Shown one piece after another: positions 785-39,448 of a stretch of DNA of 51,127 nt. Under the pieces are notes generated by a model. The model ran no database searches and was not told the origin of the DNA. It worked only from the letters and a program-made list of their open reading frames with translations. A program made the translations under genes and the position numbers. The first letter of the stretch is position 1. Every line of letters begins with the position of its first letter. This DNA comes from Patescibacteria group bacterium (GTDB lineage: Bacteria; Patescibacteriota; Minisyncoccia; UBA6257; GWB1-50-10). The stretch spans positions 1-51,127 of the forward strand of contig JBFLWN010000001.1 of the NCBI GenBank assembly GCA_040757555.1, given 5' to 3'.

Positions 785-1955
785 GGTATGAATGTGTTAT
801 TTCATTGTATGCCTCAATAAATCGTCTCGCAACTGATTCCGCAGAAAAATTGTTGTACACAAATTCTTTCCCACGTTGACCTATCTTCTCCGCTTTGTCT
901 TTATTTTCCAGTAAATCAACCACCACGTCTGCGAGAAGCTTTATATCTTTTTCAATCACAATTCCTGCTCCCGCATTTTGTATCTCTTCCGATATTGCCA
1001 CTCCCTTTGTGATAACCACCGGAAGTCCCACGGCCATTGCCTCAATTGTAGCCATACTAAAACTCTCCGAAAACGATGGGAGTACAAAGACATTACTTTC
1101 ATGGAGTACAGCTTTCTTCTCTTCTCCCGAGATAAGTCCAGTGAAAATAACTTTCTTATTAATCTTGAGATTTGAGATTTGAGATTTAATTTTTGCTATG
1201 TATCCTGCCTCATCCGGACCAGCAATGACTAGCATGGCATTTGATCTTTTTTTCAAAACGTCCGCGAACGCAGGAATGAGCGTATCAAATCCCTTTACCC
1301 AGTTTAGTCTCCCAACAAATAATACTATCTCCGAGTCCTCTTTGATTCCCCATTTATTACGGAATAAATTATTTTCCACTGGATCGAGATTTTCGCTTTC
1401 AAAGGGATTTGGAATAACTAACGCCCCTTTGAATGGAAGCTTCGTTTCTATATAATCACGCTTCTCGGCTTCACTCGTAAAATGAATCGTCGATGCATTT
1501 TTTAATACAAATTTTTCAATAAAATGCGTATATATTATTTTCTTCAAGGACTTACTTCCATACGTCTGTTTCATAAAATTTCCCCGAGGAGAAACAATGA
1601 ACGGTTTCTTATGTTTTTTTGCATAATACGCGCCAAGCAACGATGCGGAAAGAAATACTGAAGTAATATGGATAAGATCAAAATTCTGAATGTTTTTCTT
1701 TAATGCATAAAGCATTGCACTTGAGTATTCCCATGCACGAAATGTAAGGGGAAAATAAAATACTTTTACTCCATCAATATTAATCTCTTTATTCAAGGAA
1801 ACATCTAATTTTTTATCCCCATCTATATTCGTTGTGTACACCGTGACATCGATACCAAGCCTCACTAACCATTTATTCAAGATGTGCACGCTCACCACAG
1901 GGCCCCCATGACTATAGGCGGGAATATAACTTGGAGTAATGTGAAGAATTTTCAT
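777..1955 (-). CDS. glycosyltransferase family 4 (GT-B)
   Basis: MKILHI..GG start, FVGRL..VKG, PSFSESFSMATIEAMAVGLPVV. Confidence 0.9.
   Translation of the reverse strand: MKILHITPSYIPAYSHGGPVVSVHILNKWLVRLGIDVTVYTTNIDGDKKLDVSLNKEINIDGVKVFYFPLTFRAWEYSSAMLYALKKNIQNFDLIHITSVFLSASLLGAYYAKKHKKPFIVSPRGNFMKQTYGSKSLKKIIYTHFIEKFVLKNASTIHFTSEAEKRDYIETKLPFKGALVIPNPFESENLDPVENNLFRNKWGIKEDSEIVLFVGRLNWVKGFDTLIPAFADVLKKRSNAMLVIAGPDEAGYIAKIKSQISNLKINKKVIFTGLISGEEKKAVLHESNVFVLPSFSESFSMATIEAMAVGLPVVITKGVAISEEIQNAGAGIVIEKDIKLLADVVVDLLENKDKAEKIGQRGKEFVYNNFSAESVARRFIEAYNEITHSYHV
1167..1187 (-). repeat. (AAATCTC)3 heptamer array inside the GT4 gene, encoding KSQISNLK
   Basis: GAGATTT at 1167, 1174 and 1181 on +; same unit as the repeats flanking the four-helix-bundle gene. 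Confidence 0.85.
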
Positions 1956-1957
1956 GC

Positions 1958-3418
1958 TTATTTTTTGAAAAGTCCCGACACTTCAAAAACAGCCTCTTCT
2001 TTAAGAAGGAACAGAGAGGTAGTGTATATACCAGCCGAAATAACAATATTCACAATAAGATGAATATCAAACATCTTCATTATCACCACACCAACACACA
2101 TGATAAGGGTGGCCAAAAGTATTTTCTGTGGGTTTGGAAAAAATTTAAAATACCCCATTGTTTTTGCAAATTTATACATTAAAAACGTATAAATGAAAAA
2201 TGAAAAAACCGTCGCACAAGATGCACCTATCATTCCATAGGGAGGAACCAAAAGAAAATTTAAAATAACATTAGAAATAGCACCTACAAATGGAAATAAT
2301 ACGGTCTTTCGTTGTTTATCATGTGCAAAAACATAATTTGAAAGAATAACCAATGGATATATTGCTAAGATTGAAAATAATAAAATTATAAATGCCACTC
2401 CCCCAGATGAATACCCACCTCCAAAAATATATGGAAGAAGTGATGAACCCAAGATTACACCCCCCATAACGATGGGAATACAAAATGCAAACATTATTTT
2501 AAATGCACCCTCCACTAAAACCCTTATTTTTTCTTTATCTTCCTGATGTGCAAATCTGGAAAATACCGGAAATGTACTTGTTCCGATAAGTCCCGAAAAA
2601 ATAGTGAGGATACCAATTATTTTTTGTGCAGCAGAATAAATACCAACCTCAGAAACAGTTCTCCACCATCCAAGCATAATGAGATCTATATTAAATAAAA
2701 AGATACTGAGCAATCCAGACACTGCGATTGGCCACGCCGATATCAAAATTGGTTTTACTAACTTGCCAGTGAAATTTTTAATTACCCCGAATCCATACCT
2801 CCAAAAAATAATTGATCCGGTAATTATGGTCACTAATAATGACGCAGATGTGTAAGAAATAGCGAGAGAAATCGGTGTTCTCGAATATGTAAGTGCAACA
2901 AAACCGAAAATCGTGACCAACACATTCGCCACTGTAACAATCAATGCCTCCCACTCCATTTTTTCTACTCCTCTGAAAAAAGCTATAAAGAAGTCCCGTA
3001 AATCATCAGCAATTAACATTATTGCAATGATTGGAAGAAGTGTAATCGCCGCACTTATCTTACTAAATAATGGAGCGACAAATAAAAGTAGGGTTGCGGT
3101 TACTATTAATAAACAAATCTCTATCCAAAACCCAGTAGAAAAAATCTGGTCTCGTGATTTTGAATTTTTTGCAATATCACGAGTCATAATCGAATCCACA
3201 CCAATATTTTTAAACATAATAAAAAAACCGGCCAACCCAAGTGCATATGAAAAAATGCCATACCCCTCCGCACCAAGTGCACGAGCTGAATAAATGGTGA
3301 TCGCGGCACGGATAATTCTGCTTCCCATCTGACTCACTCCAAGCCACATAAAGTTCTTAAAAACCACTTTTTTTACACTCCCACTCGCAAAAAATATTTC
3401 CTTGAGTTTATTTATCAT
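1958..3418 (-). CDS. wzx: Wzx-type oligosaccharide flippase
   Basis: many TM segments, ARALGAEGYGIFS, DLIMLG..EVGIYSAA, LVPPYGMIGA motifs. Confidence 0.9.
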   Translation of the reverse strand: MINKLKEIFFASGSVKKVVFKNFMWLGVSQMGSRIIRAAITIYSARALGAEGYGIFSYALGLAGFFIMFKNIGVDSIMTRDIAKNSKSRDQIFSTGFWIEICLLIVTATLLLFVAPLFSKISAAITLLPIIAIMLIADDLRDFFIAFFRGVEKMEWEALIVTVANVLVTIFGFVALTYSRTPISLAISYTSASLLVTIITGSIIFWRYGFGVIKNFTGKLVKPILISAWPIAVSGLLSIFLFNIDLIMLGWWRTVSEVGIYSAAQKIIGILTIFSGLIGTSTFPVFSRFAHQEDKEKIRVLVEGAFKIMFAFCIPIVMGGVILGSSLLPYIFGGGYSSGGVAFIILLFSILAIYPLVILSNYVFAHDKQRKTVLFPFVGAISNVILNFLLVPPYGMIGASCATVFSFFIYTFLMYKFAKTMGYFKFFPNPQKILLATLIMCVGVVIMKMFDIHLIVNIVISAGIYTTSLFLLKEEAVFEVSGLFKK

Positions 3419-3433
3419 ATTTCACAACCAATA

Positions 3434-4402
3434 TTATGCTCTTATAAACTTATATGCTTTATATAATACCCTTAATAGTGGTCGAGGTACTAAAAAAAGT
3501 GGAAGCGCAATCCAAAATTCGGGGTAACTCCAATATAATCTAGTCATCTTCCATATTTTTGGGGAATAATTTGCAAAACCAGTTTTAAGACCTAATGAGC
3601 GTTCCACAATGACAGCCCTCCAAATACGCCCAAATTGATCAGCTAATCCTCTCCGAAAAGATTTATGGTTAAATTTGTCTCTAAACTCTTGAGCAATAAT
3701 ACGATAATTTATTGCATGTACTTCAAAAGAATCATACCACCGCACTTCTCCTGGGGGTTTAGAATAACTAAGAAGACACGCTTTTTGAACAAAGCAAGCT
3801 TCTTTATTTTGAGAAATCACATATAAGACTAAATAATATCCCGTGAGGGTTGTTCCTATAAACTTTTTAGCCTCACCAATGCCTTTTATTGTATCTTCTC
3901 TTTTCAAGATGGTCGCCGACGGAAAACCAAGAAGCCCAACGTTTATTTCAAATATTTCACTACCATTTTTAAAAAATTTATCACCGCCTAAATTTAATCC
4001 TAAATCTTTTTCATTTGTGATATTTTGTGAATTTAACCAAATAAAAGAAAGTGCTGGATATTTTCTTATGTAAGAAATCACACGCGCTACAGCATCATTT
4101 GCCATAATATCATCTCCGTACCACCAAATATATTTTCCTCTTGCCTCTTCCGTTAAAAAGAGAAGAGCCTTATCATACCCCCCAGTTTTACTTTTTTCTC
4201 CCTTAAAATAGCGAACTGAAATAGGAAGACGGTTTATATACTCTTTTACAATATTCTCGGTCTCATTGTTTGAACTGTCATCGCGAATAATTATTTCTAT
4301 ATCAGAAGTAAGTTGTTTGATTATACTTTCGAAAAAAGCCCGAACAGAATTCGGCTGGTTATACGTCGGCAAACAAATACTTAAGATTGGATCGTTATTC
4401 AT
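3434..4402 (-). CDS. glycosyltransferase family 2 (RfbV/abequosyltransferase-like)
   Basis: LSICLPTYN, IIIRDDSS, ARGKYIWWYGDD; paralog of 10638..11642. Confidence 0.8.
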   Translation of the reverse strand: MNNDPILSICLPTYNQPNSVRAFFESIIKQLTSDIEIIIRDDSSNNETENIVKEYINRLPISVRYFKGEKSKTGGYDKALLFLTEEARGKYIWWYGDDIMANDAVARVISYIRKYPALSFIWLNSQNITNEKDLGLNLGGDKFFKNGSEIFEINVGLLGFPSATILKREDTIKGIGEAKKFIGTTLTGYYLVLYVISQNKEACFVQKACLLSYSKPPGEVRWYDSFEVHAINYRIIAQEFRDKFNHKSFRRGLADQFGRIWRAVIVERSLGLKTGFANYSPKIWKMTRLYWSYPEFWIALPLFLVPRPLLRVLYKAYKFIRA

Positions 4403-4405
4403 TCT

Positions 4406-16900: not shown

Positions 16901-17950
16901 TTATTGAAGCGAGATTGATATTGCAAGCATTTTTGACAATTGCTCTCTCTGACTATACCCACTCTTCAAACACCTCTCTCTCCCAGCACGAGCAATCTCT
17001 CTTCTCTTCTCATCATTTTCAAGATAAAATCTCACTTTTTGAAGCATTTCCTCATTCGAATCAAAAAACTCCGCTTCCTTTCCTTCCTCAAAAAAATCCA
17101 AATGTCGCTTTGTTCTTTCACCAAGCATAAATCCACCGCATGCAGGAATTTCAACACTGCGACTTGTCACTTCGTCCCGGTTTATCTTACGCAAAAAACA
17201 CAAATTTATTTTTGTCGCATTCATCGCTTTTACATAATCCTCTCCATAAGCCGCTTTGTTTTTTATAATAAGGTTTTTATGTTTATCCCTCCAACCACTC
17301 CATCCATTTCCCCACACTGTTACCGTTACTCCATGCTCCGCAAGATATAACATTTGCTCTGCTCTATCGTTTTCAAATGTACCTATAAAACTAACATCGC
17401 AAGCGAAATTTCTCTGATCGTCATCTGTAAGTATAAGTGGCCTATGTAATCTTTCATCATATGAATCCAAAAAAAGCTCTGTTTTCCGCGCACCAAGCAT
17501 TTTTAACTCAGAAAGATTATATACTTTTGTGGTAAAGACAACGTCATAGTATTTAAGTCCCCAGACATACCACCACGATCGATTATGCTTTGCATACATA
17601 TCATCTTCTGAGCACGAAACAAGAATACATTTTTGTGTTTTCTTTTTTATATATCGCAATATTTTCGGATAAATAGTAACGCCCTTATCTATCCAGATAA
17701 TGTCAAATCCTTTCTGATCTACTGTTTTTTTAATAACGCAATTTTCGTTATTTGCGTTAAGAGGAAGTTTTAATTTCCAAAAAACACGGGATATAAACGA
17801 TGGATGATCGATTCCTGCAATAAACGGGACGGGAACTGAGGAAACACGCGAAACGTTATGACCAAGTATTTCGAGTGTTTCGCACCGCTGAAGACTTCTC
17901 CCCCCTTCGTTTAAGTCTCCGACAAATAATATACTAAAAGTCTTTTCCAT
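16901..17950 (-). CDS. CgeB-like glycosyltransferase (GT-B)
   Basis: DVSFIG, KINL, RSVEIPACGGFML, FEEGKE..F; start moved to MEKTF (17950) to avoid overlap. Confidence 0.82.
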   Translation of the reverse strand: MEKTFSILFVGDLNEGGRSLQRCETLEILGHNVSRVSSVPVPFIAGIDHPSFISRVFWKLKLPLNANNENCVIKKTVDQKGFDIIWIDKGVTIYPKILRYIKKKTQKCILVSCSEDDMYAKHNRSWWYVWGLKYYDVVFTTKVYNLSELKMLGARKTELFLDSYDERLHRPLILTDDDQRNFACDVSFIGTFENDRAEQMLYLAEHGVTVTVWGNGWSGWRDKHKNLIIKNKAAYGEDYVKAMNATKINLCFLRKINRDEVTSRSVEIPACGGFMLGERTKRHLDFFEEGKEAEFFDSNEEMLQKVRFYLENDEKRREIARAGRERCLKSGYSQREQLSKMLAISISLQ

Positions 17951-17957
17951 AGTTTTT

Positions 17958-18704
17958 TTATTTTTTATATGCAAAAAAATCTCCCGCACTTTCAAGCGAC
18001 TCTTCTCCAATTGGCTCAATAATATATCCAAGCGACGTAAGTATCGAATAAAAATTTTCTGGATCTCCCTTCTTATACGAAGCCTCTAGTATGATTTTTG
18101 GATGATATTTTTGAAGTGTTATCATTGCTCCGGTCAAAACCCCTTCCTGAAAACCCTCAACATCTATTTTTATCACCGATGGCGGCAAAATAAGTTTGTC
18201 ATCTACCAATCGATCAATTGTTACCATCTTTATAGGATACGCTCCCTTACTACTCAATTTACCCATAAAACTATTTTCGCCCTCATCAAACGATGCATCT
18301 CCCTCACTATCAGAAACTGCGGCTTCAATGACAACTACATTATTACATCCATTTAAAGCAATATGTTTATTTAAAAAACTAACATTCCTTTTTAATGGCT
18401 CAAAAGCAAAAATCCTTCCACTTTTTCCAACAAGTTGTGAAGCAAGAATTGTAAAAATACCGACATGGGCACCAATATCGAAAAAAACATCGCCCTCTTT
18501 CAAAACTTTTTCCAAAATTTGTTGGTGTTCGCGCTCGTATGTTCCAAGCCAATATCCACTTACCCCCGAATTTACTATCCATTTTTTTCCTCGTAATGGC
18601 CCTTGAAAAATTCTTATAATCTCAGGTTTTGGGAATATGTTTAGTACTTTACGCAATATCTTTCCTGCAAAACCCCTGTTTGATATTTTTGAAAAATTGA
18701 TCAT
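17958..18704 (-). CDS. FkbM family methyltransferase
   Basis: FFDIGAHVG, FAFEP, IKIDVEG. Confidence 0.9.
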   Translation of the reverse strand: MINFSKISNRGFAGKILRKVLNIFPKPEIIRIFQGPLRGKKWIVNSGVSGYWLGTYEREHQQILEKVLKEGDVFFDIGAHVGIFTILASQLVGKSGRIFAFEPLKRNVSFLNKHIALNGCNNVVVIEAAVSDSEGDASFDEGENSFMGKLSSKGAYPIKMVTIDRLVDDKLILPPSVIKIDVEGFQEGVLTGAMITLQKYHPKIILEASYKKGDPENFYSILTSLGYIIEPIGEESLESAGDFFAYKK

Positions 18705-19876
18705 ATTTTTAATACCCGTCTAATCCCCTCAACGTCTTTTTCGTGTGAATAATTTTTTATAATCTCTAAAGACTTTTTTTTGTAATTTCCCGAAAGAGTT
18801 AAAAATAAACATTCGGTGAATTTTTCTACATCTCCTAAGGGAAATACAAATCCATTTTCGCCCCGTTTTACTAAATCATATCCACACCCTACCACGTCAG
18901 AAACAATCACTGGAAGGTCAAAACACATTGCCTCATTTACCATAAGTCCCCACGTTTCTCCCATACCAGAAGGAAGCACAAATACGTCGGAAATGACATA
19001 AAACGCCGGAGATTCTGTTTGGTTTTTGAACCCCACAAAATGTACATCTTTCAAGTTATGTTTACTCGCATATATTTCGAGTTCTGAACGGAGGGCACCA
19101 TCACCAAGGAAAATAAGAGCTGGAGTAATCGGTAATTTGTAATTAGTAACTAGTAACTCATATGCGCGGAGAAGATCCATTGGTCGTTTTTTTTCAATTA
19201 ATTTTCCACCAAAAAGGATTATAGGACGATCATCTTCAATTCCTAAAAGCTTTTTTCTTAACTCTTTACGTTTTGGTTTTAATTCTTCGGCGGCCTTCAC
19301 AAACCGCTCATTGTCCACCGCATAAGGGACAAAAAATAACTTTTCTTTTGAAACACCATAATATTCATAAAATTTCTTATTTTGTTCTCCAATATATAAA
19401 AATGCTGAAACTCTTTTGAGTAATGTCCTAAAGAAAATTTTTTTTAGAAACTGTTTTAATTTTGACTTTTGTAACTCTTGATTCAACGGACTTTCCCCGT
19501 GCAATAATATGTGTGTACCAATTATTGGCGCCACGATTAACACAAGCCAATTTACAAACGAATTCCACCCATAAATCAACACGGCATCGTAGCGATTTTT
19601 TACAAGTTCCCTCACAATGCCAAAATTAAGTTGCCCAAAAAAATTACTTGATGGTTTTGGGGAAAAATTCTTTAAAAATTTATACGGATATCCTTCAAGT
19701 ATAGGAATATCCCACTTCACACTCACATTGAGCTCCGGATCATGGGTCTCTTTTATTCCGAAATCCCAATTAAAATAAACCATAAGATCAATATCCTCAG
19801 ACACCGCAAGTCTTCTCAATAATGGCGTCTGGTATTGAATGGCGTGGGACATAATTATTGCTAATTTCTTTTTCAT
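18701..19876 (-). CDS. glycosyltransferase family 4
   Basis: GKLIEKKRP, FVLPS..ETWGLMVNEAM. Confidence 0.9.
   Translation of the reverse strand: MKKKLAIIMSHAIQYQTPLLRRLAVSEDIDLMVYFNWDFGIKETHDPELNVSVKWDIPILEGYPYKFLKNFSPKPSSNFFGQLNFGIVRELVKNRYDAVLIYGWNSFVNWLVLIVAPIIGTHILLHGESPLNQELQKSKLKQFLKKIFFRTLLKRVSAFLYIGEQNKKFYEYYGVSKEKLFFVPYAVDNERFVKAAEELKPKRKELRKKLLGIEDDRPIILFGGKLIEKKRPMDLLRAYELLVTNYKLPITPALIFLGDGALRSELEIYASKHNLKDVHFVGFKNQTESPAFYVISDVFVLPSGMGETWGLMVNEAMCFDLPVIVSDVVGCGYDLVKRGENGFVFPLGDVEKFTECLFLTLSGNYKKKSLEIIKNYSHEKDVEGIRRVLKI
19122..19156 (-). repeat. 5 x period-7 array (TTACTAG TTACTAA TTACAAA TTACCGA TTACTCC) inside the GT4 gene
   Basis: GTAA at 19125, 19132, 19139, 19146, 19153 on +; encodes LLVTNYKLPIT. 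Confidence 0.85.
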
Positions 19877-20004: not shown

Positions 20005-21078
20005 TTATTTTTTTTCTTCAACTTTAATTTTTATAAAATCCAATAATTTCTTTATCTGATTTTGATATGCCTCCGTGCCATACGCTCCAATAGTTCGACT
20101 ACGTAATACATTTCTATCTAAAAGCTCAGGTGATACATCACGTTTTAAAACTTTGGTAATTGCGTCACTAATTGAATTAATATCGTCCGATAAAACAATT
20201 AATCCGAGTGCGCCATTTAAAAGAGCTGTTTCCGCACCTTTCTGATTTCCTCCTATGACCGGAACCCCACACGACAGAGCCTCAAGAAGGACTATGGCGG
20301 GAAATCCTTCGTTTTTTGAGGGTAACACAAACACATCAGCAAGATTATAATAATCTACTAATTCCTCATTTTTTGGCGAATCGCCTAGAATTACACTTCC
20401 CTCCAGATGTAGCTCATGAATAAGTTGTCTCACATTAGAAACATCATCTCCGCCCCCCACTAAAAGATACTTTGCTTCTGGGATACTTTTTACTACCACT
20501 GGCATGGCTTTAATTACTCTCTTATATCCCTTGTTATCCCCATCGAGAACAGACATTCTTCCTATGGTCAAAATAACTTTTGAACCACTTAATCCATACC
20601 GTGACAACAAATCTTTAGATCTTTCCAAAATTTTAAAATGGTTCTCATCTACGGAGTTTGGTAATTTAAAAAGCCTTTCTTTAACACCTCTAACTTGATC
20701 TAATATGTTCTCTGCAGTCGCTTCAAATAAATAGATAATTACATCCGCAAGTCGTAAGGATTTTTTAAATGACTCTTTTATCTTTACGGTCTCTATGCCA
20801 TATACACTTATACTAAACTGAATGCCAAAGAATTTCTTTAAAAAATAACATAACGGAGAAAAATGAAGGTGTGTACAAATAATAAAATCTGGATTTTTGA
20901 AGATCGCAAAAAATAAAACCTTAATTGCAAAAAGCAATTTAGAAAAAAATCTCCCCTCTTTTCTTTCAATGAGAAATACATCACCCCCCTGTTCTCTCAA
21001 TGAGGACAAAAAAATACGATTGTATTTCTCTATCCCACCAATTTGATTTATGTCTGAACTGATAAAAAGTATTTTCAT
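20005..21078 (-). CDS. glycosyltransferase family 4
   Basis: MKILF..GGIE, TIGR..NKG, DVFVLPSKNEGF..LLEALSCGVPV; start set at MKILF. Confidence 0.9.
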   Translation of the reverse strand: MKILFISSDINQIGGIEKYNRIFLSSLREQGGDVFLIERKEGRFFSKLLFAIKVLFFAIFKNPDFIICTHLHFSPLCYFLKKFFGIQFSISVYGIETVKIKESFKKSLRLADVIIYLFEATAENILDQVRGVKERLFKLPNSVDENHFKILERSKDLLSRYGLSGSKVILTIGRMSVLDGDNKGYKRVIKAMPVVVKSIPEAKYLLVGGGDDVSNVRQLIHELHLEGSVILGDSPKNEELVDYYNLADVFVLPSKNEGFPAIVLLEALSCGVPVIGGNQKGAETALLNGALGLIVLSDDINSISDAITKVLKRDVSPELLDRNVLRSRTIGAYGTEAYQNQIKKLLDFIKIKVEEKK

Positions 21079-21083
21079 CTGAA

Positions 21084-22916
21084 TTAAGAAAATTTCTTTA
21101 ATACCTCTATTGCCCAATTTTGTGACCAGTGAAACTTAGTAACCGGCAATTTATAATCGGTAACTAGTAACCGTCCCGTGAGCCATTTTTGAAGTGGAAA
21201 CGTAAAACCCATCTTTGGACGATCCCACACCTCAGAAGGAATAATATCTTTTGTCGCATCTATCAAAAATTGCTTCTGATATTCCCCGGAAAGTTTTAGT
21301 TCTGCTGGAAGAGAAGATATATATTCAACAAGCGGATGATCGAGAAATGGAACACGAACCTCAATAGAATGCGCCATCGACATCACATCGGTATCTTTTA
21401 ATAACTGATTCTGCATATAGAGAGTAAAATCGAGATAGGAGAGGAGGTCAGCCGGAGAAAGGGTAACTAGTAAATTGTAATTAGTAACTAATAATTCGTT
21501 TTCTAGTTTTTTGATAAAACTCCACACGCTTTTTTCGGAAATACCTAAAACTTTTGCGACTTCTGAAGGAAGAAAAATACCACGAAACAAGAGATAAAAT
21601 TCAAGAATGCTCTCCGAACGCAAATATGAAAGTTTTCTGTATTTCCCCCCGAATATTGATCCCAAAAATAATAATGGAAGTTTTACTACTTTTGGCAATT
21701 TTTGTATTTTTCGGATAAATCCTGCTTTTCTAAAATTTGTATACCCGAGAAAAATCTCATCACTTCCCAATCCCGAAAGCACAACAGTGAGTCCCGCCTG
21801 CCTTGCGGCTTCTGAGATCATATATGAATTTATCCCATCGATACTTGGTTGATCCATTGATTTCCAAAATTCATCGAGTGTCTTATAAAAACCTTCTTTT
21901 GTGATAAGAATTTCCCTGTGCGCACTTCCAATTTTTTTTGCCACCATATCTTGATATCTTTTTTCTGAAAATTCTTCTTCTTCAAAATGTACCGAGAGCG
22001 TTTTTACGCTCTCACGCTGATCAATACTGATTTTAGCTGATGAATGCTGATTCAATTCACTACTGGCAAGTGCGGTAAGAGCAGAGGAGTCCAATCCACC
22101 ACTCAGAAATACCCCAATCGGGGCATCGCTAATAAGGTGTCCCCGTATTGAATCTTCAAGAAGTGTTCTTATTTTCTTAGATATAACAATTGGATCAGTA
22201 TCGGAACTTTTGTTTATATAAAAATCGAGAGGATTATAATATTGAGCTATTTTTTTATTTCCCGATGCATCAACTTCAATATAATTGCTCGCGGGAACCG
22301 CATAGACATTCTTTAATGTGGTGTGGGGAAGCGGGACAGATCCGAAAAGCAAAAAACCAATAGACGCCTCATTATTTTTCTCTATATTAATTTCCCCGCT
22401 TTTTTCAATCGCCTTCACTGTTGAGGCAAATACAACTTTCTCTTTGTCAAAATAGTAGTAGAGCGGCTTTATTCCATACCGGTCACGCACAAGAAAAAGC
22501 TTTTGTCTTTCTTCGTCCCACAAACCAAACGCAAACATCCCTCGAAGTTTTTTTACCATCTTAATTCCCCATTTTTCATATCCCGCAAGGATTACCTCGG
22601 TATCAGAATTGGTATGAAACGATATTCCTAAATTTTCTAATTCTTTTTTTAGTTCCCGAAAATTATATATCTCCCCATTAAAGGTGACAGAGATTTTTGC
22701 ACCACTCACATTTCTCCACTCCATTGGCTGATGTCCATCTTTTGAAAGGTCAATAATTGAAAGTCTTCGATGACCAAACCCTCCATTTGAAAACAAAAAC
22801 ACTCCCCGATCATCGGGTCCGCGCAACGCTTGAGATTCATCCATTCTTTCAATAGCGTGTTCAATTTCTTTTTGTTCTTTTTTCTCAAAAGACACTATTC
22901 CACTAATCCCACACAT
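21084..22916 (-). CDS. asnB: asparagine synthase (glutamine-hydrolysing)-like amidotransferase
   Basis: MCGISG, RGPD, HRRLSIID, FNGEIYN, RDRYGIKPLYY, LSGGLDSS, EVRVPFLD, KMGF. Confidence 0.93.
   Translation of the reverse strand: MCGISGIVSFEKKEQKEIEHAIERMDESQALRGPDDRGVFLFSNGGFGHRRLSIIDLSKDGHQPMEWRNVSGAKISVTFNGEIYNFRELKKELENLGISFHTNSDTEVILAGYEKWGIKMVKKLRGMFAFGLWDEERQKLFLVRDRYGIKPLYYYFDKEKVVFASTVKAIEKSGEINIEKNNEASIGFLLFGSVPLPHTTLKNVYAVPASNYIEVDASGNKKIAQYYNPLDFYINKSSDTDPIVISKKIRTLLEDSIRGHLISDAPIGVFLSGGLDSSALTALASSELNQHSSAKISIDQRESVKTLSVHFEEEEFSEKRYQDMVAKKIGSAHREILITKEGFYKTLDEFWKSMDQPSIDGINSYMISEAARQAGLTVVLSGLGSDEIFLGYTNFRKAGFIRKIQKLPKVVKLPLLFLGSIFGGKYRKLSYLRSESILEFYLLFRGIFLPSEVAKVLGISEKSVWSFIKKLENELLVTNYNLLVTLSPADLLSYLDFTLYMQNQLLKDTDVMSMAHSIEVRVPFLDHPLVEYISSLPAELKLSGEYQKQFLIDATKDIIPSEVWDRPKMGFTFPLQKWLTGRLLVTDYKLPVTKFHWSQNWAIEVLKKFS
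21136..21170 (-). repeat. 5 x period-7 TTAC-type array at the asnB 3' end
   Basis: TTACTAG TTACCGA TTATAAA TTGCCGG TTACTAA; encodes LLVTDYKLPVT. Confidence 0.8.
21460..21494 (-). repeat. 5 x period-7 TTAC-type array inside asnB
   Basis: TTATTAG TTACTAA TTACAAT TTACTAG TTACCCT; encodes LLVTNYNLLVT. Confidence 0.8.
22012..22051 (-). repeat. 4 x period-10 ATCAG array inside asnB
   Basis: CTGAT at 22017, 22027, 22037, 22047 on +. Confidence 0.7.
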
Positions 22917-22960
22917 GGATTAAGTATAAAGCGACAAAGAGAAAGTATAAAGTGGGAGAT

Positions 22961-23080
22961 ATAAAAATCTTTCCGCCAAAGGCGGATCCGCCTCGGGCGG
23001 AAAAACTAAAAACTCAAAACTCAAAATTAACAAACTAACCACGCCTGTCGGCGGGCAGAAATCTCAAAATTCAAAACCAT
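22961..23080. repeat. intergenic composite: GC-rich REP-like palindromes interleaved with period-7 AAAACT/AAATCTC units
   Basis: TCCGCCaaaGGCGGATCCGCCtcgGGCGGA, then AAAAACT AAAAACT CAAAACT CAAAATT, GCCTGTCGGCGGGC, AAATCTCAAAATTC. Confidence 0.7.
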
Positions 23081-23081
23081 T

Positions 23082-24695
23082 TCACTGCCATTCACAGAAG
23101 ATAAGTGGAGTCTGATTTTCGTATGATGTTATTTCTTTCCTATTTTCGGGACGACAGATTGTTTGTTCAAGTGGAATTTGCCACGTATTCCTTGAATCCT
23201 GCGCGTTTCCCGTTTTCGAATAAATCGCTATTTTATTTTTAAATCCCAATTTAGTGATTTCAGCCTGTACCTCGGGTTTAAAGAGGTCACTTGAAATGGG
23301 AAATATCTGCACTTGTGGAAACTGATTTCTATATACCACGAGTGCCGTACCCGGATTTCCCCATTGAGGATCAAAAAACAATACACTTGGGCTGGGAGCT
23401 GTCTTTAACATATTCACCGCCTCACGAATATTCCATCCGTTTGTCCAATTGAAGAGATCTTGTTTCATCTGTCCCGTCCCCTGTTCGAGATATTTCATTG
23501 GTGCACTTTTCATCATTACTATTTGATATCCGGACCACAAAACCATTGTAGCAATGATTATTATTCCACATCCCTTTATCCATTTTTTATCCGAAAAAAA
23601 CGAAAGAAAGGCAAAGCGTGCGATCATATATACCGTAAAAATCACCGTAAGGGAAATATAAATATGTTCATTAAACCACTTAAGTCCAAATATGACTCCG
23701 CAGGACGAAAGAATAAATAAAAATCCAATTGCGATATCTCGCCAATTTTTTTTCCAAATCATAAAGATAAAAAATCCTACAAGTGCAATCACTGCGGGCA
23801 ACCCATAATAATGTGCGAACACTCCATACACAATATTGAAGTTTTCTTTCCATATATCGAGGGGAAATCCAAACAATTCTTTTATCGAAAATGTCCATTG
23901 TCCCGTATATATATCACGTGCAAAAATACGCGCGGGAAGAATTATTTTATAGAGTAGAAATGAAAAAACCCATACTCCCACAAATATACCGATATTCCTC
24001 TGCCATGCTTTTTTCTTTTCTATTCGAATATTCCGTTCTTTTTTTGATATTTCTTCTTCCCCTTGTTTCTTTTTCCATTCCTTTCTCATTTCGAAGAAAA
24101 AGAAAAACGGAAGAAATATAAAAACATAAAAATAGAGAACGCCACTCTGCTTTGAAAGCAAAAGCATTATACCGGCAAGAAGTGCTCCCCCAATATCACC
24201 CCATGGAATTTTTTCTGCGGGAGCAGTAAGAATTTTTACAAATCCAAAAAGCAGGAGCGCTGCGGATGAAAGTACGAAGATATCCGCCATATATCGTATT
24301 CCCACATAGAGAGACGCGGGGAGAAGTGCGAATGTGAAAGCCGCAATAATCGCTGTTTTTTCGTCATACAATCGTTTTACGCCATAATATACCCCAATGA
24401 GCCCTATAATAGAGAATATAACGGATGCGGTCCTCCCTGCCGCAACAGGATCTTCGGAAATAGGCATAAATACAGACCCAATCCAATACTGGAGCGGAGC
24501 CTTCCAATCATTAAATACATTATCCATAGAAATGTATTTATATTTCGCAAAATCTTCGTGAATGAGTTGTGAGTATTGAAGATAGATACTCTCATCACTG
24601 AATATAGGAAACGAAGTAAGATTCAGAAATCTCACAAAAAGAAACACGACAAAAATCGCGATAAGGAGATATATGGAAAAATTTTTCTTCAGCAT
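23082..24695 (-). CDS. GT-C membrane glycosyltransferase (ArnT/PMT-like)
   Basis: PIFSDESIY after TM1, KAPL, AGR..S, many TMs, soluble C-terminus. Confidence 0.8.
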   Translation of the reverse strand: MLKKNFSIYLLIAIFVVFLFVRFLNLTSFPIFSDESIYLQYSQLIHEDFAKYKYISMDNVFNDWKAPLQYWIGSVFMPISEDPVAAGRTASVIFSIIGLIGVYYGVKRLYDEKTAIIAAFTFALLPASLYVGIRYMADIFVLSSAALLLFGFVKILTAPAEKIPWGDIGGALLAGIMLLLSKQSGVLYFYVFIFLPFFFFFEMRKEWKKKQGEEEISKKERNIRIEKKKAWQRNIGIFVGVWVFSFLLYKIILPARIFARDIYTGQWTFSIKELFGFPLDIWKENFNIVYGVFAHYYGLPAVIALVGFFIFMIWKKNWRDIAIGFLFILSSCGVIFGLKWFNEHIYISLTVIFTVYMIARFAFLSFFSDKKWIKGCGIIIIATMVLWSGYQIVMMKSAPMKYLEQGTGQMKQDLFNWTNGWNIREAVNMLKTAPSPSVLFFDPQWGNPGTALVVYRNQFPQVQIFPISSDLFKPEVQAEITKLGFKNKIAIYSKTGNAQDSRNTWQIPLEQTICRPENRKEITSYENQTPLIFCEWQ

Positions 24696-24697: not shown

Positions 24698-25282
24698 CTA
24701 TGGCTGCGAAAGAAATGCGCGAATTTCAGTGTCATCCGGCCAGAGAGAAAGAATAGTTTCTGCCACCTCCCTTGCTTTTATAATCTCTCCCTTTTCTTTG
24801 TACAGATTCAAAAGTTCATAGAGCACAGGGGGAAGCTTTGGACCAATGGTGCGAGCGGCAACATAATACCCTTCCGCTCTTTGATAGTCTTCTTCTTTGT
24901 TAAATCGCCTCCATAATACAAAATGCATTTGCCCCCCCGCAAGAAGATGACGAACATTATTTTTAAACAGGAGTGGTTCCGCATAATCCACAAGCGCACG
25001 AGTTACTTCTTCCGATTGATTTTGTTTTACTATAATATTCATAATATCGTTCGACAAAAATTTCGTTACTTCTTCTTCGCCAATTGGAGAATATAGTTTG
25101 ACCGCTTTATCGTACGCATTGAAATAATCACCAAGCGACTGCACCTTTCCCCCACTTACTGTTTTTAACGCATCAATATATGCCTGCGCTTTTGCCCAGG
25201 GTGCATAAGCGCCAAAATAAATTCCAATAACGGAAAGAATTATTAATACAATGATAAGAAGTTGTTTTACAAAAATATTCAT
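24698..25282 (-). CDS. membrane-anchored TPR-like protein
   Basis: N-terminal TM, then helical A..Y..A....P and L..LY...G....A patterns. Confidence 0.6.
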   Translation of the reverse strand: MNIFVKQLLIIVLIILSVIGIYFGAYAPWAKAQAYIDALKTVSGGKVQSLGDYFNAYDKAVKLYSPIGEEEVTKFLSNDIMNIIVKQNQSEEVTRALVDYAEPLLFKNNVRHLLAGGQMHFVLWRRFNKEEDYQRAEGYYVAARTIGPKLPPVLYELLNLYKEKGEIIKAREVAETILSLWPDDTEIRAFLSQP

Positions 25283-25297
25283 AGAGATAATTTAAAG

Positions 25298-25756
25298 GTA
25301 AAATCTCAAATCTCAAAAATGAAATTCAAAATTTAAATCTTATTTTTATTTTTCATTGTTATAATACTTGCGGCTAATATTTTAGATATTTCTTCGGTTT
25401 CTTTTAAAATATCATTGCTTTCTTTTTCGTTTAATTTCTTACTATCTCTCAAATAACAAATCCATAATTTTGATTCATTGGCTGATTTTAATGCGTAATG
25501 ATAAAAATTGATATAGTCTTTTTTAGAACTCGCAGATTTTGCCTCAATCACGTTTGCACTCACTGAGGTGCCACTTCTTAATAATTGTTTTCCAATAACA
25601 TCCGACGTTCTGTCTTTTGGGAGCCTCTCTATCATCTGTATAATTTTTAATCCATATAAATAAATCCTCCTATATAATTCGTTTTTGTATTCATTACCTG
25701 TCATATATTTTTTATTTTTTAACTGTACTTTTGAGATTTGAGATTTGAGATTTTAC
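25298..25756. mobile_element. four-helix-bundle cassette bounded by a perfect 20-bp inverted repeat
   Basis: GTAAAATCTCAAATCTCAAA (25298-25317) and TTTGAGATTTGAGATTTTAC (25737-25756). Confidence 0.55.
25333..25704 (-). CDS. four helix bundle protein (23S rRNA IVP / bAvd-like family)
   Basis: QLLRSGTSVSANVIEA..S.KDY..F...ALKSANES..W family signature; 123 aa, Lys-rich. Confidence 0.9.
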   Translation of the reverse strand: MTGNEYKNELYRRIYLYGLKIIQMIERLPKDRTSDVIGKQLLRSGTSVSANVIEAKSASSKKDYINFYHYALKSANESKLWICYLRDSKKLNEKESNDILKETEEISKILAASIITMKNKNKI

Positions 25757-27154
25757 ATCAGTAAGCCGATATGTCGCAAGTGCGAAAAACACAAATAAAT
25801 TAAGGTAAATAATAGAGACATCAAAAAGAACAAGACCTTGAACGAGATATGACAATGGAAGGGCAAAAAGAAGGGCATCTTCCATCACAAAAGAACCGTC
25901 TCGCACTTCTTGTTTTTTTTCTTTTACTAAATCTTTTTGTGATGGAGAATTTCCAATTTCGAATTTCGAATTTCCAATTTTATTTTTAAATAAGCCGGAT
26001 TTTTTGAAAATAAGAACAAAAAAAGTAATAAAAATACCAAAATAACTTAAGAAACCAAGGATGCCGGTTTCAGCGAGATAATCAAAATAAATACTATGTG
26101 CCCTATCGAACCACGCGCCAAATTGCTGACCGGGAACGAAATATTTTGTGTTGAAATTTGTATCGAAAATCTGGAGATAATTTTCAGGACCCCATCCCAA
26201 AAGTGGTCGCTCTTTAAATCCATCCCACGCGATTTTCCACATGATAGTACGATGTTCAAACGTTTGTGCACGTACCGAAAGATCAAAAAGACGTGATCCG
26301 GGAAGATCTTTCGCAAGCGGAGAATTGCTTACTCCTATTATTCCCCCAAAAAGAACAATAAGAACCACGGTTGCAATAATAAACTTTTTTCGCCATTTTT
26401 TACTCGTAAATCCGACATATCCAAGAAATCCTATGAGCGAAATAGCAAGTCCAACAAATCCTCCACGTGTCGCAGCGGCAAAAAATACCACAAGAAAAAT
26501 GAGAAATAATACTCCCATGAATATCCCCCCTGCGGATTTAATTTTTGCGCTATATTTTTTTATGAAAAGATATGCGACATAAAACATGAGAAAAATTGCA
26601 TATGTTGCAACATATGCAGGATTTCCTATTGATCCCTGAAATCGAAATCCAGGGCCAAATTGTGCACCTATAAAATTATTCACTCCCGAGGCAGCAAGAA
26701 GTCCATATAAAGACATGAGAAGTCCCCCTGCAATTCCCCATTGAAATAAACGAAACCAATCTTTTTCTTCTTTGAAAAGTGTTACGAGTAACACAAAATA
26801 AATGTAGAAACAAAGCATTTGTAACCCCCCCTCTCCCCGCTCAAAATTGGACCAAAAAGAATTTAGCGGATCAATACCAAAAAATCCTGCAAGAAGAAAT
26901 ATAAGAACAAAGATACTTACCGCAATCGTGAGGGGGCGTCGAAATATTTCGATTAACCTTTTCCACATAACCTCCACATGATCCTCAAACAGAAGTCCGA
27001 TAAGAAAGAAAATCAGTGCCAAAAACACTAAACTTCGAAACCATACATATTTTCCCACAATAAACGGAAAAAGCGTTGATGTGGTTACTAGAACCACTCC
27101 TATCATAGGAAGAAGGAGAAGAAATTTTGATGTCTTAAAAAATGAAAAATTCAT
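25712..27154 (-). CDS. O-antigen ligase / O-oligosaccharyltransferase family (Wzy_C)
   Basis: GSIGNP, TRGG, R..MW..AW..FKERPLLGWGPENY, DRAHS...YLAETGILG. Confidence 0.9.
   Translation of the reverse strand: MNFSFFKTSKFLLLLPMIGVVLVTTSTLFPFIVGKYVWFRSLVFLALIFFLIGLLFEDHVEVMWKRLIEIFRRPLTIAVSIFVLIFLLAGFFGIDPLNSFWSNFERGEGGLQMLCFYIYFVLLVTLFKEEKDWFRLFQWGIAGGLLMSLYGLLAASGVNNFIGAQFGPGFRFQGSIGNPAYVATYAIFLMFYVAYLFIKKYSAKIKSAGGIFMGVLFLIFLVVFFAAATRGGFVGLAISLIGFLGYVGFTSKKWRKKFIIATVVLIVLFGGIIGVSNSPLAKDLPGSRLFDLSVRAQTFEHRTIMWKIAWDGFKERPLLGWGPENYLQIFDTNFNTKYFVPGQQFGAWFDRAHSIYFDYLAETGILGFLSYFGIFITFFVLIFKKSGLFKNKIGNSKFEIGNSPSQKDLVKEKKQEVRDGSFVMEDALLFALPLSYLVQGLVLFDVSIIYLNLFVFFALATYRLTDVKSQISNLKSTVKK
25947..25981 (-). 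repeat. 5 x period-7 GAAATT(C/G) array inside the O-antigen ligase gene
   Basis: AATTT(C/T) at 25948, 25955, 25962, 25969, 25976; encodes KIGNSKFEIGNS. Confidence 0.8.
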
Positions 27155-34748: not shown

Positions 34749-34753
34749 TTAGG

Positions 34754-34785
34754 TAGAGGTTAGGGATTAGTAAGTTAGGGTATAG
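34754..34785. repeat. 5-unit TAG array (spacing 7,7,8,7) at a gene end
   Basis: TAG at 34754, 34761, 34768, 34776, 34783. Confidence 0.5.
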
Positions 34786-37467: not shown

Positions 37468-37522
37468 ATTTTTATACTAATTTTTTTATTCTTACGACGT
37501 TTTGTGTTCTCATTATAACAGA

Positions 37523-38743
37523 CTATTTTATATTTTCTAAAACCCTTTTTAAGACTCCTCCAACATACTCAATTTCCTCCTTGGTAGTATATTTCCCAAG
37601 ACTAAAGCGAATACTCTCCCGCGCACGCGTTTCTCCCCATATATCTTGAATTATACGCGACGGTTCCTGCGAACGCGCATGACACGCCGATCCAGATGAC
37701 ACCGCAATACCCTCCATATCAAGTTTTATAAGAAATAATTCGGACGAAATATCAGGAAAATACACATTCAATATATTCGGAAGTGTATTTTCAAGAGACC
37801 CATTTGTTTCAGCTTTGGGATATACTTTTTTAATTGAAGTCCACAACTCTTCTCTTAATTTTGCTATCCTTTTTGTTTCTTTATTACGATTCTTATCAGC
37901 AAGTTCACACGCCTTTGCACATCCAACAATCCCTGCGATATTCTGTGTTCCGCTGCGCAATCCAAACTCCTGTCCCCCTCCGGTTATAATCGAAGAAAGC
38001 GGATAAGTTTTATTCTTTTTCACATACAACACACCAACACCTTTTGGCCCATATATTTTATGTGCGGAGAACGTCATCAAATCCACGCCAAGTTTTTTCA
38101 CATTACAATCGAGAAATTGGAACGCCTGGACAGCGTCGGTATGAAACAATGGATGTGTTGTCTCATAGTTTCCAGTTTTTGATTTCCAATTTTCAATGAT
38201 TTTTGAAATTTCAAAAATCGGCTGAATGGTTCCAATTTCATTATTCGCGTACATTATTGAAATCAAAATTGTTCGTTCATCTAATTCCTTTTCAATTTTT
38301 TTTACATCAATTATTCCATTTTTATTCACTGGAATAATTACCGTCTCGACCCCTTCTTTTTCTAAATCTTTTGCGGTTTCATAAACTGATTCATGTTCAA
38401 TCGCAGAAATAATTATTTTCGGGCGTGATGTAATTTTATTCGATTGATGGTGGTAGTTTTTTAGAACCCCTCTCAATGCCAAACTATTTGCCTCTGTCGC
38501 TGATCCGGTAAAAATAATCTCATTAAAATCCGCGCCGATCGATTGTGCGATTTTTGCCCGCGCCTCATCAATATACTTGAGCGATTCACGTCCAAAGCTA
38601 TGCAGTGAATTCGGATTTCCGAATATTAAACCTTCACCAAAGAATGGTTTCATGGCATTAAACACCTCTGTGTCTACTGGAGTAGTTGCCGCATAATCAA
38701 GGTATATTCTCTTAGAAATAGGCTCTTTTTTTATCATTTTCAC
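37523..38743 (-). CDS. iscS: cysteine desulfurase (IscS/NifS family)
   Basis: YLDYAATTP, GNPNSLH, HTDAVQ, SAHKIYGPKG, RSGT, SSGSAC. Confidence 0.92.
   Translation of the reverse strand: MKMIKKEPISKRIYLDYAATTPVDTEVFNAMKPFFGEGLIFGNPNSLHSFGRESLKYIDEARAKIAQSIGADFNEIIFTGSATEANSLALRGVLKNYHHQSNKITSRPKIIISAIEHESVYETAKDLEKEGVETVIIPVNKNGIIDVKKIEKELDERTILISIMYANNEIGTIQPIFEISKIIENWKSKTGNYETTHPLFHTDAVQAFQFLDCNVKKLGVDLMTFSAHKIYGPKGVGVLYVKKNKTYPLSSIITGGGQEFGLRSGTQNIAGIVGCAKACELADKNRNKETKRIAKLREELWTSIKKVYPKAETNGSLENTLPNILNVYFPDISSELFLIKLDMEGIAVSSGSACHARSQEPSRIIQDIWGETRARESIRFSLGKYTTKEEIEYVGGVLKRVLENIK
38167..38194 (-). repeat. degenerate period-7 GGAAA(C/T)-type array inside iscS
   Basis: GAAAATT GGAAATC AAAAACT GGAAACT; encodes the ENWKSKTGN segment before HTDAVQ. 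Confidence 0.5.
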
Positions 38744-38768
38744 TGCATTATAAGCCCATTTTTCTGAT

Positions 38769-38797
38769 TTGACAAATCCATATTTTGGTGATATAAT
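38769..38797 (+). promoter_or_regulatory. consensus sigma70 promoter
   Basis: TTGACA-17 bp-TATAAT with extended TG; GGAGG upstream of the ATG at 38853. Confidence 0.8.
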
Positions 38798-38852
38798 TAC
38801 ACCAGAGGCTAAAAAGCAGCCATATTAAAAATTAGAAAAGGGAGGAGTCGCG

Positions 38853-39299
38853 ATGTTAAAATCGAGATTTCCAATCAGTGCAGTATTTGCAATAACAATT
38901 GTAAACGAGGGATTTGTACTCATCCATGAAGCAAATACCAGACCGCCAGTGTTATGGAAAAACGTCGGAGGAAGGTTAGAAAAACCTACAGAGGACGACG
39001 TTGAAATAGAGTTGGAGGGAATAAAAAGAGAGTTTGAAGAAGAAACAAAGAAAAAGCTTCCTCGAAATAAATTCGAAGAATTCACAGTAGTCGATGTAGA
39101 GAGAGGAAATTATTCGATCCTCTTTTACGTCGTCGACATTCCAGAAGTTTCTTTTACTGAACTCCGGAAAGGAGACGAGGTTGAAGAAATGAAATTCGTT
39201 TCCAGAAAGCAATTGCAAGAAATGATCTCCATGCGACAACTCGTCGGAAATCATGCAAAAGCCCTCCAGGAATACCTGGAAGCCACTGAAGAAGAATAA
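38853..39299 (+). CDS. NUDIX hydrolase
   Basis: W..VGGRLE...REFEEET Nudix box with lengthened spacer; promoter, RBS and terminator present. Confidence 0.8.
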   Translation: MLKSRFPISAVFAITIVNEGFVLIHEANTRPPVLWKNVGGRLEKPTEDDVEIELEGIKREFEEETKKKLPRNKFEEFTVVDVERGNYSILFYVVDIPEVSFTELRKGDEVEEMKFVSRKQLQEMISMRQLVGNHAKALQEYLEATEEE

Positions 39300-39336
39300 T
39301 TTTTTCATCCTCGATCCCCCCACCGAAAATCCATTC

Positions 39337-39368
39337 AAAAAACCCCGCATACAACTGCGGGGTTCTTT
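39337..39368. terminator. intrinsic terminator
   Basis: AACCCCGCA-tacaac-TGCGGGGTT flanked by A and T runs. Confidence 0.75.
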
Positions 39369-39413
39369 CTTTTTCTCATTCGCTCATTCGCGCGAATGAT
39401 TCCCTTCCCTTTT

Positions 39414-39448
39414 GTTACTAGTTAAAGGTTAATTGTTATTAGTCATCT
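39414..39448 (+). repeat. 5 x period-7 GTTA array just downstream of the mgtC-like gene
   Basis: GTTACTA GTTAAAG GTTAATT GTTATTA GTCATCT. Confidence 0.75.

Follow-up and report, generated by a model that had tools for sequence, protein, structure and literature searches.

We analysed dispersed arrays of tandem heptanucleotides in a 51,127-nucleotide stretch of DNA (hereafter the window) at the beginning of contig C1 (JBFLWN010000001.1, assembly GCA_040757555.1) of a Patescibacteria group bacterium. These arrays belong to the known class of heptanucleotide direct repeats. They are probably copies of one module, the home of which is the pair of inverted arms that brackets genes of the 23S_rRNA_IVP (S23p) family (hereafter IVP genes) and forms with them a small cassette of the intervening sequence (IVS) type; the other arrays of the window would be solo copies of this module. 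The systematic tie of the arrays to IVP cassettes, and their modal form of five cores, appear to be new. The host genome comprises 873,410 bases in 32 contigs, with a completeness rating of 100%, and the window makes up 5.9% of it. The G+C content of the window is 35-47%, and its minus strand carries nearly all the genes.

The IVP cassette of the window (25262..25775, minus strand) consists of an arm, an open reading frame (ORF) and an inverted arm, and lies between genes for a TPR protein (24698-25282) and a Wzy-like (Wzy_C) protein (25712-27154). The ORF (25333..25704, minus strand) encodes a 123-aa protein of the S23p four-helix-bundle type (PF05635, E 1.1e-21, 77.4 bits versus a cut-off of 33.8). 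This protein matches PDB 2RLD, an entry with five chains, with an E-value of 6.7e-16, and its single-sequence AlphaFold model has four helices at low confidence (mean pLDDT 64.6). On the coding strand, the upstream arm (25730..25757, minus strand) reads AAATCTC in 3.4 copies with 100% matches (25730-25753; Tandem Repeats Finder, TRF), and it also encodes the C-terminal residues (KSQISNLK) of the Wzy-like protein. The downstream arm (25289..25337, minus strand) is of the GAGATTT type on the coding strand and hence inverted relative to the upstream arm; TRF recovered its perfect part at 25301-25317 (2.4 copies, 100% matches). The duplex between the two arms was computed at −28.4 kcal/mol. In both the minimum-free-energy and the centroid folds of the minus-strand transcript, the ORF is enclosed by a stem that the two arms make up, with a z-score of only −1.96 for the fold as a whole. 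No rRNA in the window was matched by Rfam, and the cassette lies outside any rRNA gene. The genome encodes an RNase III, and the paired arms would offer a substrate of the RNase III type, as in the IVSs of rRNA; we infer that the stem is processed.

The genome has three PF05635 matches in all, and inverted repeats of the AAAGT type likewise stand on both sides of the two others, which lie on contig C4. All three IVP genes of the same-genus genome G003 have inverted heptamer arms as well, with unit families differing from those of this genome. Inverted array pairs that enclose no ORF were found in this genome (C4 25077-25151), in G003 and in other phyla.

The cassette is like the 23S rRNA IVSs of Coxiella and Leptospira in having a PF05635-type ORF within the element, ends that pair (there a stem cut by RNase III) and a product of the pentamer family. 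It is unlike them in its location between Wzy-like and TPR genes rather than in an rRNA gene. In the Coxiella IVS, two to three tandem heptamers and a degenerate one are situated just upstream of the ORF; strains differ in their number, and the first repeat is where RNase III cleaves (Warrier et al. 2016, PMC4990558). The text available of that account ties the heptamers to a single IVS rather than to a general architecture of arms, and discusses no dispersed solo arrays. Elsewhere, IVP genes were found inserted in cas operons (PMC3936711) and in rRNA genes of the candidate phyla radiation (CPR), where the family is called uncharacterised (PMC11270868). In the relative G008, a locus (L115, C4:30849-32163) with an IVP ORF and four upstream copies of TCAGAnn lies inside what by eye is the apparent 5' part of a 16S rRNA gene.

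Arms of this kind accompany IVP genes throughout the lineage. We assembled 46 lineage IVP genes, six from this genome and G003 and 40 that were full-length, above the cut-off and away from contig ends, and searched 150 nt on either side for TRF arrays of period 5-12 with at least three copies. Arrays were present upstream of 26, downstream of 21 and on both sides of 13 of these genes, compared to 20, 23 and 0, respectively, for 896 other genes of this genome. The best period was 7 in 29 of the 47 flanks, and in flank complementarity 19 of 44 lineage IVP genes fell under the 5th percentile of the control genes. The original prediction had linked the arrays to four-helix-bundle genes, and this link is borne out for PF05635: inverted arrays bracket IVP genes far more often than other genes.

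The same architecture was observed in other phyla. An alignment of ten IVP proteins was used to collect candidates, one genome per species; 589 of the 600 candidate stretches were confirmed, and the best 80 were analysed, which their titles classed as 28 CPR, 48 other phyla and 4 unclear. Among the CPR loci, 23 had upstream arrays, 12 downstream arrays and 10 both; the corresponding numbers for the other phyla were 24, 30 and 15. Period 7 accounted for 25 of the 35 CPR and 48 of the 54 non-CPR flank arrays. The arrays are largely confined to the immediate flanks: the proximal 150 nt contained one upstream in 48/80 and downstream in 44/79 loci, versus 0-4 of 50-52 (others) and 0-1 of 28 (CPR) for control intervals 200-350 and 400-550 nt away. 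Where both sides had period-7 arrays, the upstream unit was the reverse complement of the downstream unit, with at most one mismatch, in 16 of 21 loci. Arm length had its mode at 30-31 nt (22/75), which, with a core at both ends of the array, corresponds to five cores. The coding strand of the upstream arm was shut by stop codons in all three frames in 27 of 40 loci. Five cultured non-CPR genomes with 2-15 IVP genes each were checked for a five-core AGT pattern, overlapping positions within long arrays being counted separately; this gave 161, 155, 27, 0 and 28 hits, against 53, 58, 50, 0 and 4 for the pattern read backwards. Four of the five have many five-core AGT-type arrays, including IVP arms and inverted pairs without an ORF.

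Array density also follows the presence of IVP genes across genomes. Of 41 genomes belonging to this family and order, 29 have a PF05635 match. We determined period-7 array density for this whole genome and for 50-400 kb, chosen by contig, from each of 20 relatives, and obtained medians of 9.5 per 100 kb (range 0-25) in the nine genomes with IVP genes and 1.25 (0-3.8) in the 12 without (Mann-Whitney p 0.0009; Spearman 0.72 with IVP count), statistics that ignore kinship. Density does not drop with G+C. The arrays are therefore not equally common in genomes lacking four-helix-bundle genes, the outcome that had been named beforehand as speaking against such a link.

The modal arm suggests a further reading, compatible with the module proposed above, in which the arrays are RNA sites for a pentameric IVP ring, each protomer taking one heptamer, the arms serving autoregulation and the solo arrays constituting a regulon. 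TRAP provides the precedent, an eleven-subunit ring that reads (G/U)AG triplets with 2-3-nt spacers on RNA near the start codon. Upstream IVP arms are like TRAP sites in being built mostly from regularly spaced NAG cores: for this IVP subfamily, AG was present in the upstream unit of 37/40 loci and TAG in that of 25/40, and the arm ended 0-25 nt from the start codon in 24/40. They are unlike TRAP sites in having five cores with 4-5-nt spacers, and the protein has an unrelated fold. The arm mode of 30-31 nt agrees with five subunits, arm-unit likeness tracks IVP protein similarity (reaching near background below about 50% identity), and genomes without IVP genes have fewer arrays.

What is known of the family is consistent with such a ring. 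S23p is a homopentamer of four-helix bundles (PMC4990558; PMC3936711, citing Lin 2006), and the entry 2RLD has five chains. Avd of the diversity-generating retroelements (DGRs), to which the window IVP protein is homologous, is a positively charged pentameric four-helix-bundle barrel that contacts RNA (PMC10053308, 10.1101/2023.10.23.563531). Unlike Avd, which has an adjacent reverse transcriptase (RT) as partner, the IVP gene of the window has no RT nearby; the genome has a single RT gene, on a different contig. Several features do not fit a ring. Arms range from 3 to 20.9 copies, and periods of 8-11 occur too. Complementary arms would, if paired, be double-stranded. The AG-type arm of the window cassette is located downstream, not upstream; three IVP genes face many unit families; and S23p is probably not produced in Coxiella (PMC4990558). 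Binding of the arrays by the pentamer is plausible. That the ring actually reads the five cores is a tentative suggestion, to which we give clearly less credence than to the module itself, although it has withstood the refuting conditions named beforehand better than anticipated. Still more speculative is its widest form, in which IVP/S23p pentamers would be sequence-specific RNA readers of five-core arrays, acting on their own arms (autoregulation or RNase III control) and on solo arrays, with the unit families as co-evolving specificity classes.

An origin of the arrays from a retroelement or DGR was considered and rejected, as RT presence is unrelated to array density in the 41 genomes (arrays are dense in G003, G007 and G022, which have no RT match, and sparse in G016 and G036, which have one). 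The single RT gene of this genome is on contig C9 at 17848-18915 (PF00078, E 5.9e-20; match 18061-18636), in a small operon with heptamer arrays at its two borders (C9 16459-16507 and 19673-19707). A template/variable repeat pair was not found near it; the repeat pair nearby has no adenine-specific mismatches and represents a plain duplication of intergenic DNA. A 199-nt direct repeat (84% identity; C9:22418-22612 and 23274-23468) stands on either side of the gene at 22614-23249, and both of its copies contain a heptamer array of the GTAA type along with a hairpin that resembles a terminator. Two relatives (G005:C20, G004:C2) have weak PF05635 matches (E 2e-4 to 3e-4) no more than about 600 nt away from RT matches, as would be expected for the avd genes of DGRs. 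The strong PF05635 matches stand alone.

We quantified the arrays of the whole genome by two approaches: TRF, with expectations from 20 dinucleotide shuffles within 300-nt blocks, and a column-invariance detector requiring four units with at least four invariant columns. TRF found 45, 23 and 15 period-7 arrays of at least 3, 4 and 4.5 copies, compared to 6.1, 1.0 and 0.45 expected. The excess at period 8 was smaller (13, 5 and 3 versus 4.5, 0.6 and 0.3 expected). By the detector, there were 55 period-7 arrays (2.0 expected), against 11 at period 8 (8.6 expected) and six at period 6 (1.6 expected); at five units, 16 period-7 arrays were found where none was expected. Crude ORF calls placed 29 of the 55 in genes, 11 across a gene end and 15 between genes. 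There are at least six unit families: AAATCTC, the TTAC type, GAAATTC/AATTTCG, AGTATTA, TCAAAAT and AAAAACT.

The number of units depends on how strictly a core is defined. With one core mismatch tolerated, 22 arrays had four units, 28 had five, three had six, and one each had seven and nine; with strict cores, 44 had four, 11 had five and none had more. In the relaxed count, 60% of the arrays pass from four to five units and 15% from five to six. As a flanking unit would pass by chance in roughly 13% of cases (an estimate), the first step is real and the second is not. Block length has its ceiling at about 28-35 nt. Perfect two-unit heptamers show no enrichment (60 versus 49.6 expected), and the genome has only three perfect arrays of at least three units (two of three units, one of five). 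Taken together, the lack of a two-unit excess and the scarcity of longer perfect arrays argue that the arrays appear as blocks of about 30-35 nt and do not grow unit by unit.

Mismatches within the arrays look random. The 16 TRF arrays have 0-4 mismatches each and 74 invariant columns, compared to 71.7 expected under random decay (P = 0.17). An architecture of fixed core and variable spacer is thus unsupported within this genome, the mismatches not being clustered by column. The arrays had been described as keeping only three to four fixed bases per unit, unlike fresh microsatellites. They are indeed not the product of fresh slippage, but the fixed bases are statistically indistinguishable from what random decay leaves.

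These counts bear on the possibility that the arrays are plain heptanucleotide microsatellites, formed by slippage, decayed since and unrelated to IVP genes, their proximity to which would reflect tolerant non-coding DNA. Heptameric repeats have earlier been reported to be in excess in bacteria (PMC4692102), Coxiella strains differ in unit number (PMC4990558), and the mismatch placement just described fits random decay. However, growth by slippage was rejected on the near-expected number of perfect two-unit repeats and the near-absence of three-unit ones, and it does not account for the sharp ceiling at four to five units. Nor does it explain the roughly 25-fold excess at IVP flanks over other genes, with distal intervals of the same loci empty, the inverted orientation of the two arms, or a change of unit family in register and at constant length, which is described below. 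We consider this origin very improbable.

Comparison with G003 illustrates gain, loss and replacement. The genes flanking the cassette site are 78-79% identical between the two genomes, and the 514 nt between them in the window have no detectable DNA similarity to the 512-nt IVP cassette that G003 has at the same site, which carries other arms. At another site, a G003 cassette of about 440 nt, the first arm unit of which overlaps the stop codon of the upstream gene, corresponds to an array-free spacer of about 97 nt in this genome. Cassettes therefore come and go together with their arms. A solo array has also changed: in the glycosyltransferase gene GT4 777-1955 it is of the AAATCTC type here and of the TTAC type in G003, at an identical place and with the same length and register, and its flanks align without gaps at about 85% identity. 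Judged from this alignment, the change is a block replacement. The same-genus genomes G001 and G002 do not have the polysaccharide locus of the window, and their matches to it were only to the arrays themselves.

The variability of the units also bears on the suggestion that the arrays are sites of another abundant protein, a nucleoid protein or a post-transcriptional regulator. Proteins of both kinds have been proposed for comparable repeats, IHF/HU in Geobacter (PMC2700814) and S1, Csp or CsrA in Beggiatoaceae, where TAACTGA repeats occur just upstream of start codons (PMC4679880). However, the unit sequence varies between sister genomes and between loci, which is hard to reconcile with a conserved housekeeping protein, and the placement around IVP genes would be left unexplained. 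We hold this to be very improbable.

The arrays inside genes encode the peptides that had been claimed: ELLVTNYKLPIT in GT4 18701-19876, ELLVTNYNLLVT in AsnB, and KSQISNLK both in the product of GT4 777-1955 and at the C-terminal end of the Wzy-like protein. The claimed orientation is also descriptively correct, with one orientation in genes and the inverted one past stop codons. Both regularities have a simple cause. As 7 and 3 are coprime, three consecutive units run through all three frames, and the strand with GTAA, GAGATTT and similar units has TAA, TGA or TAG in every frame; hence only the complementary strand can code, usually in one frame. In line with this, the antisense strand was shut in all three frames in 10 of the 29 in-gene arrays, compared to 88 of 3000 random in-gene 33-mers. 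The stop-codon constraint accounts for the common frame and peptides, for the apparent rule of sense orientation and for the inverted copies past stops. Shared frame and sense orientation, being forced by stop codons, say nothing on peptide function.

The host genes include many of housekeeping function, namely those for TsaD (three arrays), LeuRS, RsmH, UvrC, a Mur ligase, the CCA enzyme, MnmA, SMC, PolA and KsgA. Selection of the peptides (LLVTNYK..., KSQISNLK) at the protein level, or a role as phase-variation switches of surface-polysaccharide genes, is hardly credible: a single polysaccharide locus does supply several of the host genes (glycosyltransferase, Wzy and AsnB), and coding-region heptanucleotide repeats are reported to drive NeuO phase variation, but the same arrays occur in TsaD, LeuRS, RsmH, UvrC, SMC, PolA, KsgA and others and in intergenic DNA, most are imperfect, which makes slippage unlikely, the shared frame follows from stops in the other frames, and one site of one gene (GT4 777-1955) has different peptides in two species. 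Moreover, unlike phase-variable repeats, only three arrays of at least three units are perfect, and orthologous arrays keep their length and register in two species.

The peptides had further been taken for insertions, and here the alignments gave no clean picture. AsnB, RsmH and TsaD array 2 align with their homologs at equal or nearly equal length; TsaD array 3 falls in a 14-residue and the MnmA array in a 6-residue excess relative to solved homologs, and TsaD array 1 is upstream of the likely true start codon. Clean 33-nt insertions are thus unsupported by the AsnB, RsmH, TsaD and MnmA alignments. For both AsnB arrays, orthologs of 51-54% identity have a stretch of the same length, and both arrays are also present in G003 (82% protein identity). 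In the array at 21136-21170, four of the five TTAC cores are intact in G003 and three of five in the window; at the DNA level, the two species have lost different cores from an original set that must have had five TTAC units.

We propose the following sequence of events. The module would be a block of about 30-35 nt with five short cores spaced 7 nt, at home in the inverted arm pair around IVP genes. In the window, these arms may pair into a long stem around the ORF of the minus-strand transcript. Solo arrays would arise as whole blocks and not by stepwise slippage, and blocks may be swapped in register, conceivably by short-patch copying from another array. Point mutation would then decay the solo arrays, and within genes they would persist only in loops or linkers and in the orientation and frame that avoid stops. 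We infer that solo copies derive from the arms or exchange with them. The copies at gene ends are possibly scars of lost cassettes.

Several observations weigh against this derivation from IVP arms. As many as 52 of the 55 arrays of this genome do not adjoin an IVP gene, and three IVP genes stand against at least six unit families. When solo-array families were compared with the cassette arms of their own genome, the matrix of consensus distances had no clear diagonal, and a count of exact patterns was too strict. The correlation of arm units with protein similarity is explained by co-descent as well as by co-evolution. The density comparison is subject to its contig-based sampling and its disregard of kinship; three IVP-negative genomes have some arrays over expectation (G024, 6 versus 0.3; G010, 3 versus 0; G017, 2 versus 0), and the 80-kb sample of the IVP-positive G005 had none. 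IVP genes may also hide in unassembled rRNA operons of the 'negative' genomes. Finally, certain in-gene arrays coincide with segments that look ancestral, so that an insertion origin is not shown for these. The RsmH array, compared with a Thermotoga structure, lies in a stretch of near-equal length (+1 and +3 residues) that is already similar; TsaD array 2 aligns without gaps to a solved homolog; and in the Por_Secre_tail paralogs, three AGTATnA arrays all fall on one domain motif, SIKYEVSSI. The Por_Secre_tail domain, known from sorting in type IX secretion, is present in three proteins of this Patescibacteria genome (C1:80969-81862, C1:84528-85409 and C4:72077-74089).

Within the window, period-7 arrays are real at most of the sites named by the original prediction, as confirmed by direct reading, TRF (score threshold 30) and the detector, which places eight of the genome's 55 arrays here. 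Two further arrays, predicted at 38167-38194 and 34754-34785, were recovered neither by TRF nor by the column-invariance detector. Several of the others lie in the polysaccharide locus, which according to the Pfam names of its genes extends over 777-27154 and includes GT4 glycosyltransferases (777-1955, 18701-19876 and 20005-21117), AsnB (21084-22916), a PMT_2 protein (23082-24695) and the TPR, IVP and Wzy-like proteins mentioned above. The solo AAATCTC-type array of GT4 777-1955 (1165..1199, minus strand; TRF, detector and translation) encodes IAKIKSQISNLK at aa 253-264, and TRF reports its 1165-1187 part as 3.3 copies of TTGAGAT with 100% matches. The solo TTAC-type array of GT4 18701-19876, encoding ELLVTNYKLPIT, is at 19124..19158 on the minus strand (detector; TRF 19124-19156, 4.7 copies, 80%). 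AsnB has two arrays on the minus strand, a decayed TTAC-type one near the C-terminus (21136..21170, LLVTDYKLPVT), under TRF score 30 and identified by direct reading with GTAAC in three of five units, and a solo one at 21462..21496 (detector; TRF 21463-21494, 4.6 copies, 76%), which gives ELLVTNYNLLVT at aa 474-485. In addition to its arm, the Wzy-like gene contains a solo GAAATTC-type array at 25947..25981 on the minus strand (detector; TRF 25948-25980, 4.7 copies, 92%), encoding KIGNSKFEIGNS at aa 392-403.

Three arrays, without an assigned strand, are intergenic. An AAAAACT-type array (23001..23038; TRF, 5.3 copies, 83%; detector) lies between AsnB and PMT_2. On either side it has a short G+C-rich hairpin (GGCGGATCCGCC and GCCTGTCGGCGGGC), the rest of the spacer (22980-23060) being rich in A+T, and a cassette arm of G003 is likewise interrupted by similar G+C-rich hairpins. 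Directly past the stop of the PMT_2 gene is a weak AAATCTC-like copy (23059..23075; two mismatches to a 17-mer), and directly past the stop of gene 39450-39926 is a GTTA-type array (39411..39445; direct reading and detector). In both of these, the coding strand has the stop-rich orientation.

A second repeat family, of the AAATCAGCG type, gives rise to in-frame low-complexity KS(A/V)xISxxxR insertions in AsnB. The AsnB of the window has one such insertion, SSAKISIDQRESV, at about 21915-21975 on the minus strand, and its ortholog in G003 (L002, G003:C7) has four of this type, its length being about 688 aa instead of 610. Longer tandem repeats were detected by TRF at 20941-21013 (31-nt unit, 2.3 copies, score 86), in the region of GT4 20005-21117, and at 41397-41509 (33-nt unit, 3.4 copies, score 112), within the ORF at 40886-41974. 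Rfam gave a full-length match to LOOT RNA (RF03000) at 50722-50832 on the minus strand, with 78.2 bits versus a gathering score of 46.4.

Mazel is said to have described, in 1990, heptamers of cyanobacteria as short tandemly repeated repetitive (STRR) sequences. With a 7-nt unit, few copies per set and 55 sets of four to five units in 873 kb, the arrays described here fall in with repeats of the STRR, TAACTGA and Geobacter types. In Geobacter metallireducens, 49 elements of four heptanucleotides occur in and between genes, sometimes several per gene, along with eight pairs of five tandem heptanucleotides and 24 opposite-strand pairs of four octanucleotide repeats at variable distance (Aklujkar et al. 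2009, PMC2700814). Like these elements, our arrays have four or five heptanucleotide units in tandem and occur both inside genes and between them. The G. metallireducens units, unlike ours, are G+C-rich, and were ascribed to unidentified global regulators or to IHF/HU (PMC2700814); the terms 'S23' and 'intervening sequence' have zero occurrences in the main text of that paper. The TAACTGA repeats of Beggiatoaceae, Cyanobacteria and Bacteroidetes form sets of two to six copies, mostly intergenic, with some in ORFs (MacGregor 2015, PMC4679880). They share with our arrays the dispersal as small heptamer sets and a stop-codon content that depends on orientation (PMC4679880). Both they and the STRR have one dominant unit per genome, whereas many families coexist here and 29 of the 55 arrays are in genes. 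Neither 'four helix' nor 'S23' nor 'intervening sequence' occurs in the text available of PMC4679880. In the literature searched, to which most subscription journals were external, the one case found of a link between IVP genes and arrays was that of the heptamers preceding the ORF of the Coxiella IVS.

The tie reported here joins two things that had been unexplained: dispersed heptanucleotide repeats without a function or a partner protein, and the widespread 23S_rRNA_IVP/S23p family, the structure of which is solved. For annotation it carries a warning, as the short low-complexity peptides in housekeeping proteins of such genomes are by-products of an element that acts at the nucleotide level. 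The link also turns the idea of five sites for five subunits into a simple binding question. If the pentamers are indeed readers of the arrays, this would also give a function to the heptanucleotide repeats of cyanobacteria (STRR), Beggiatoaceae, Geobacter and others.

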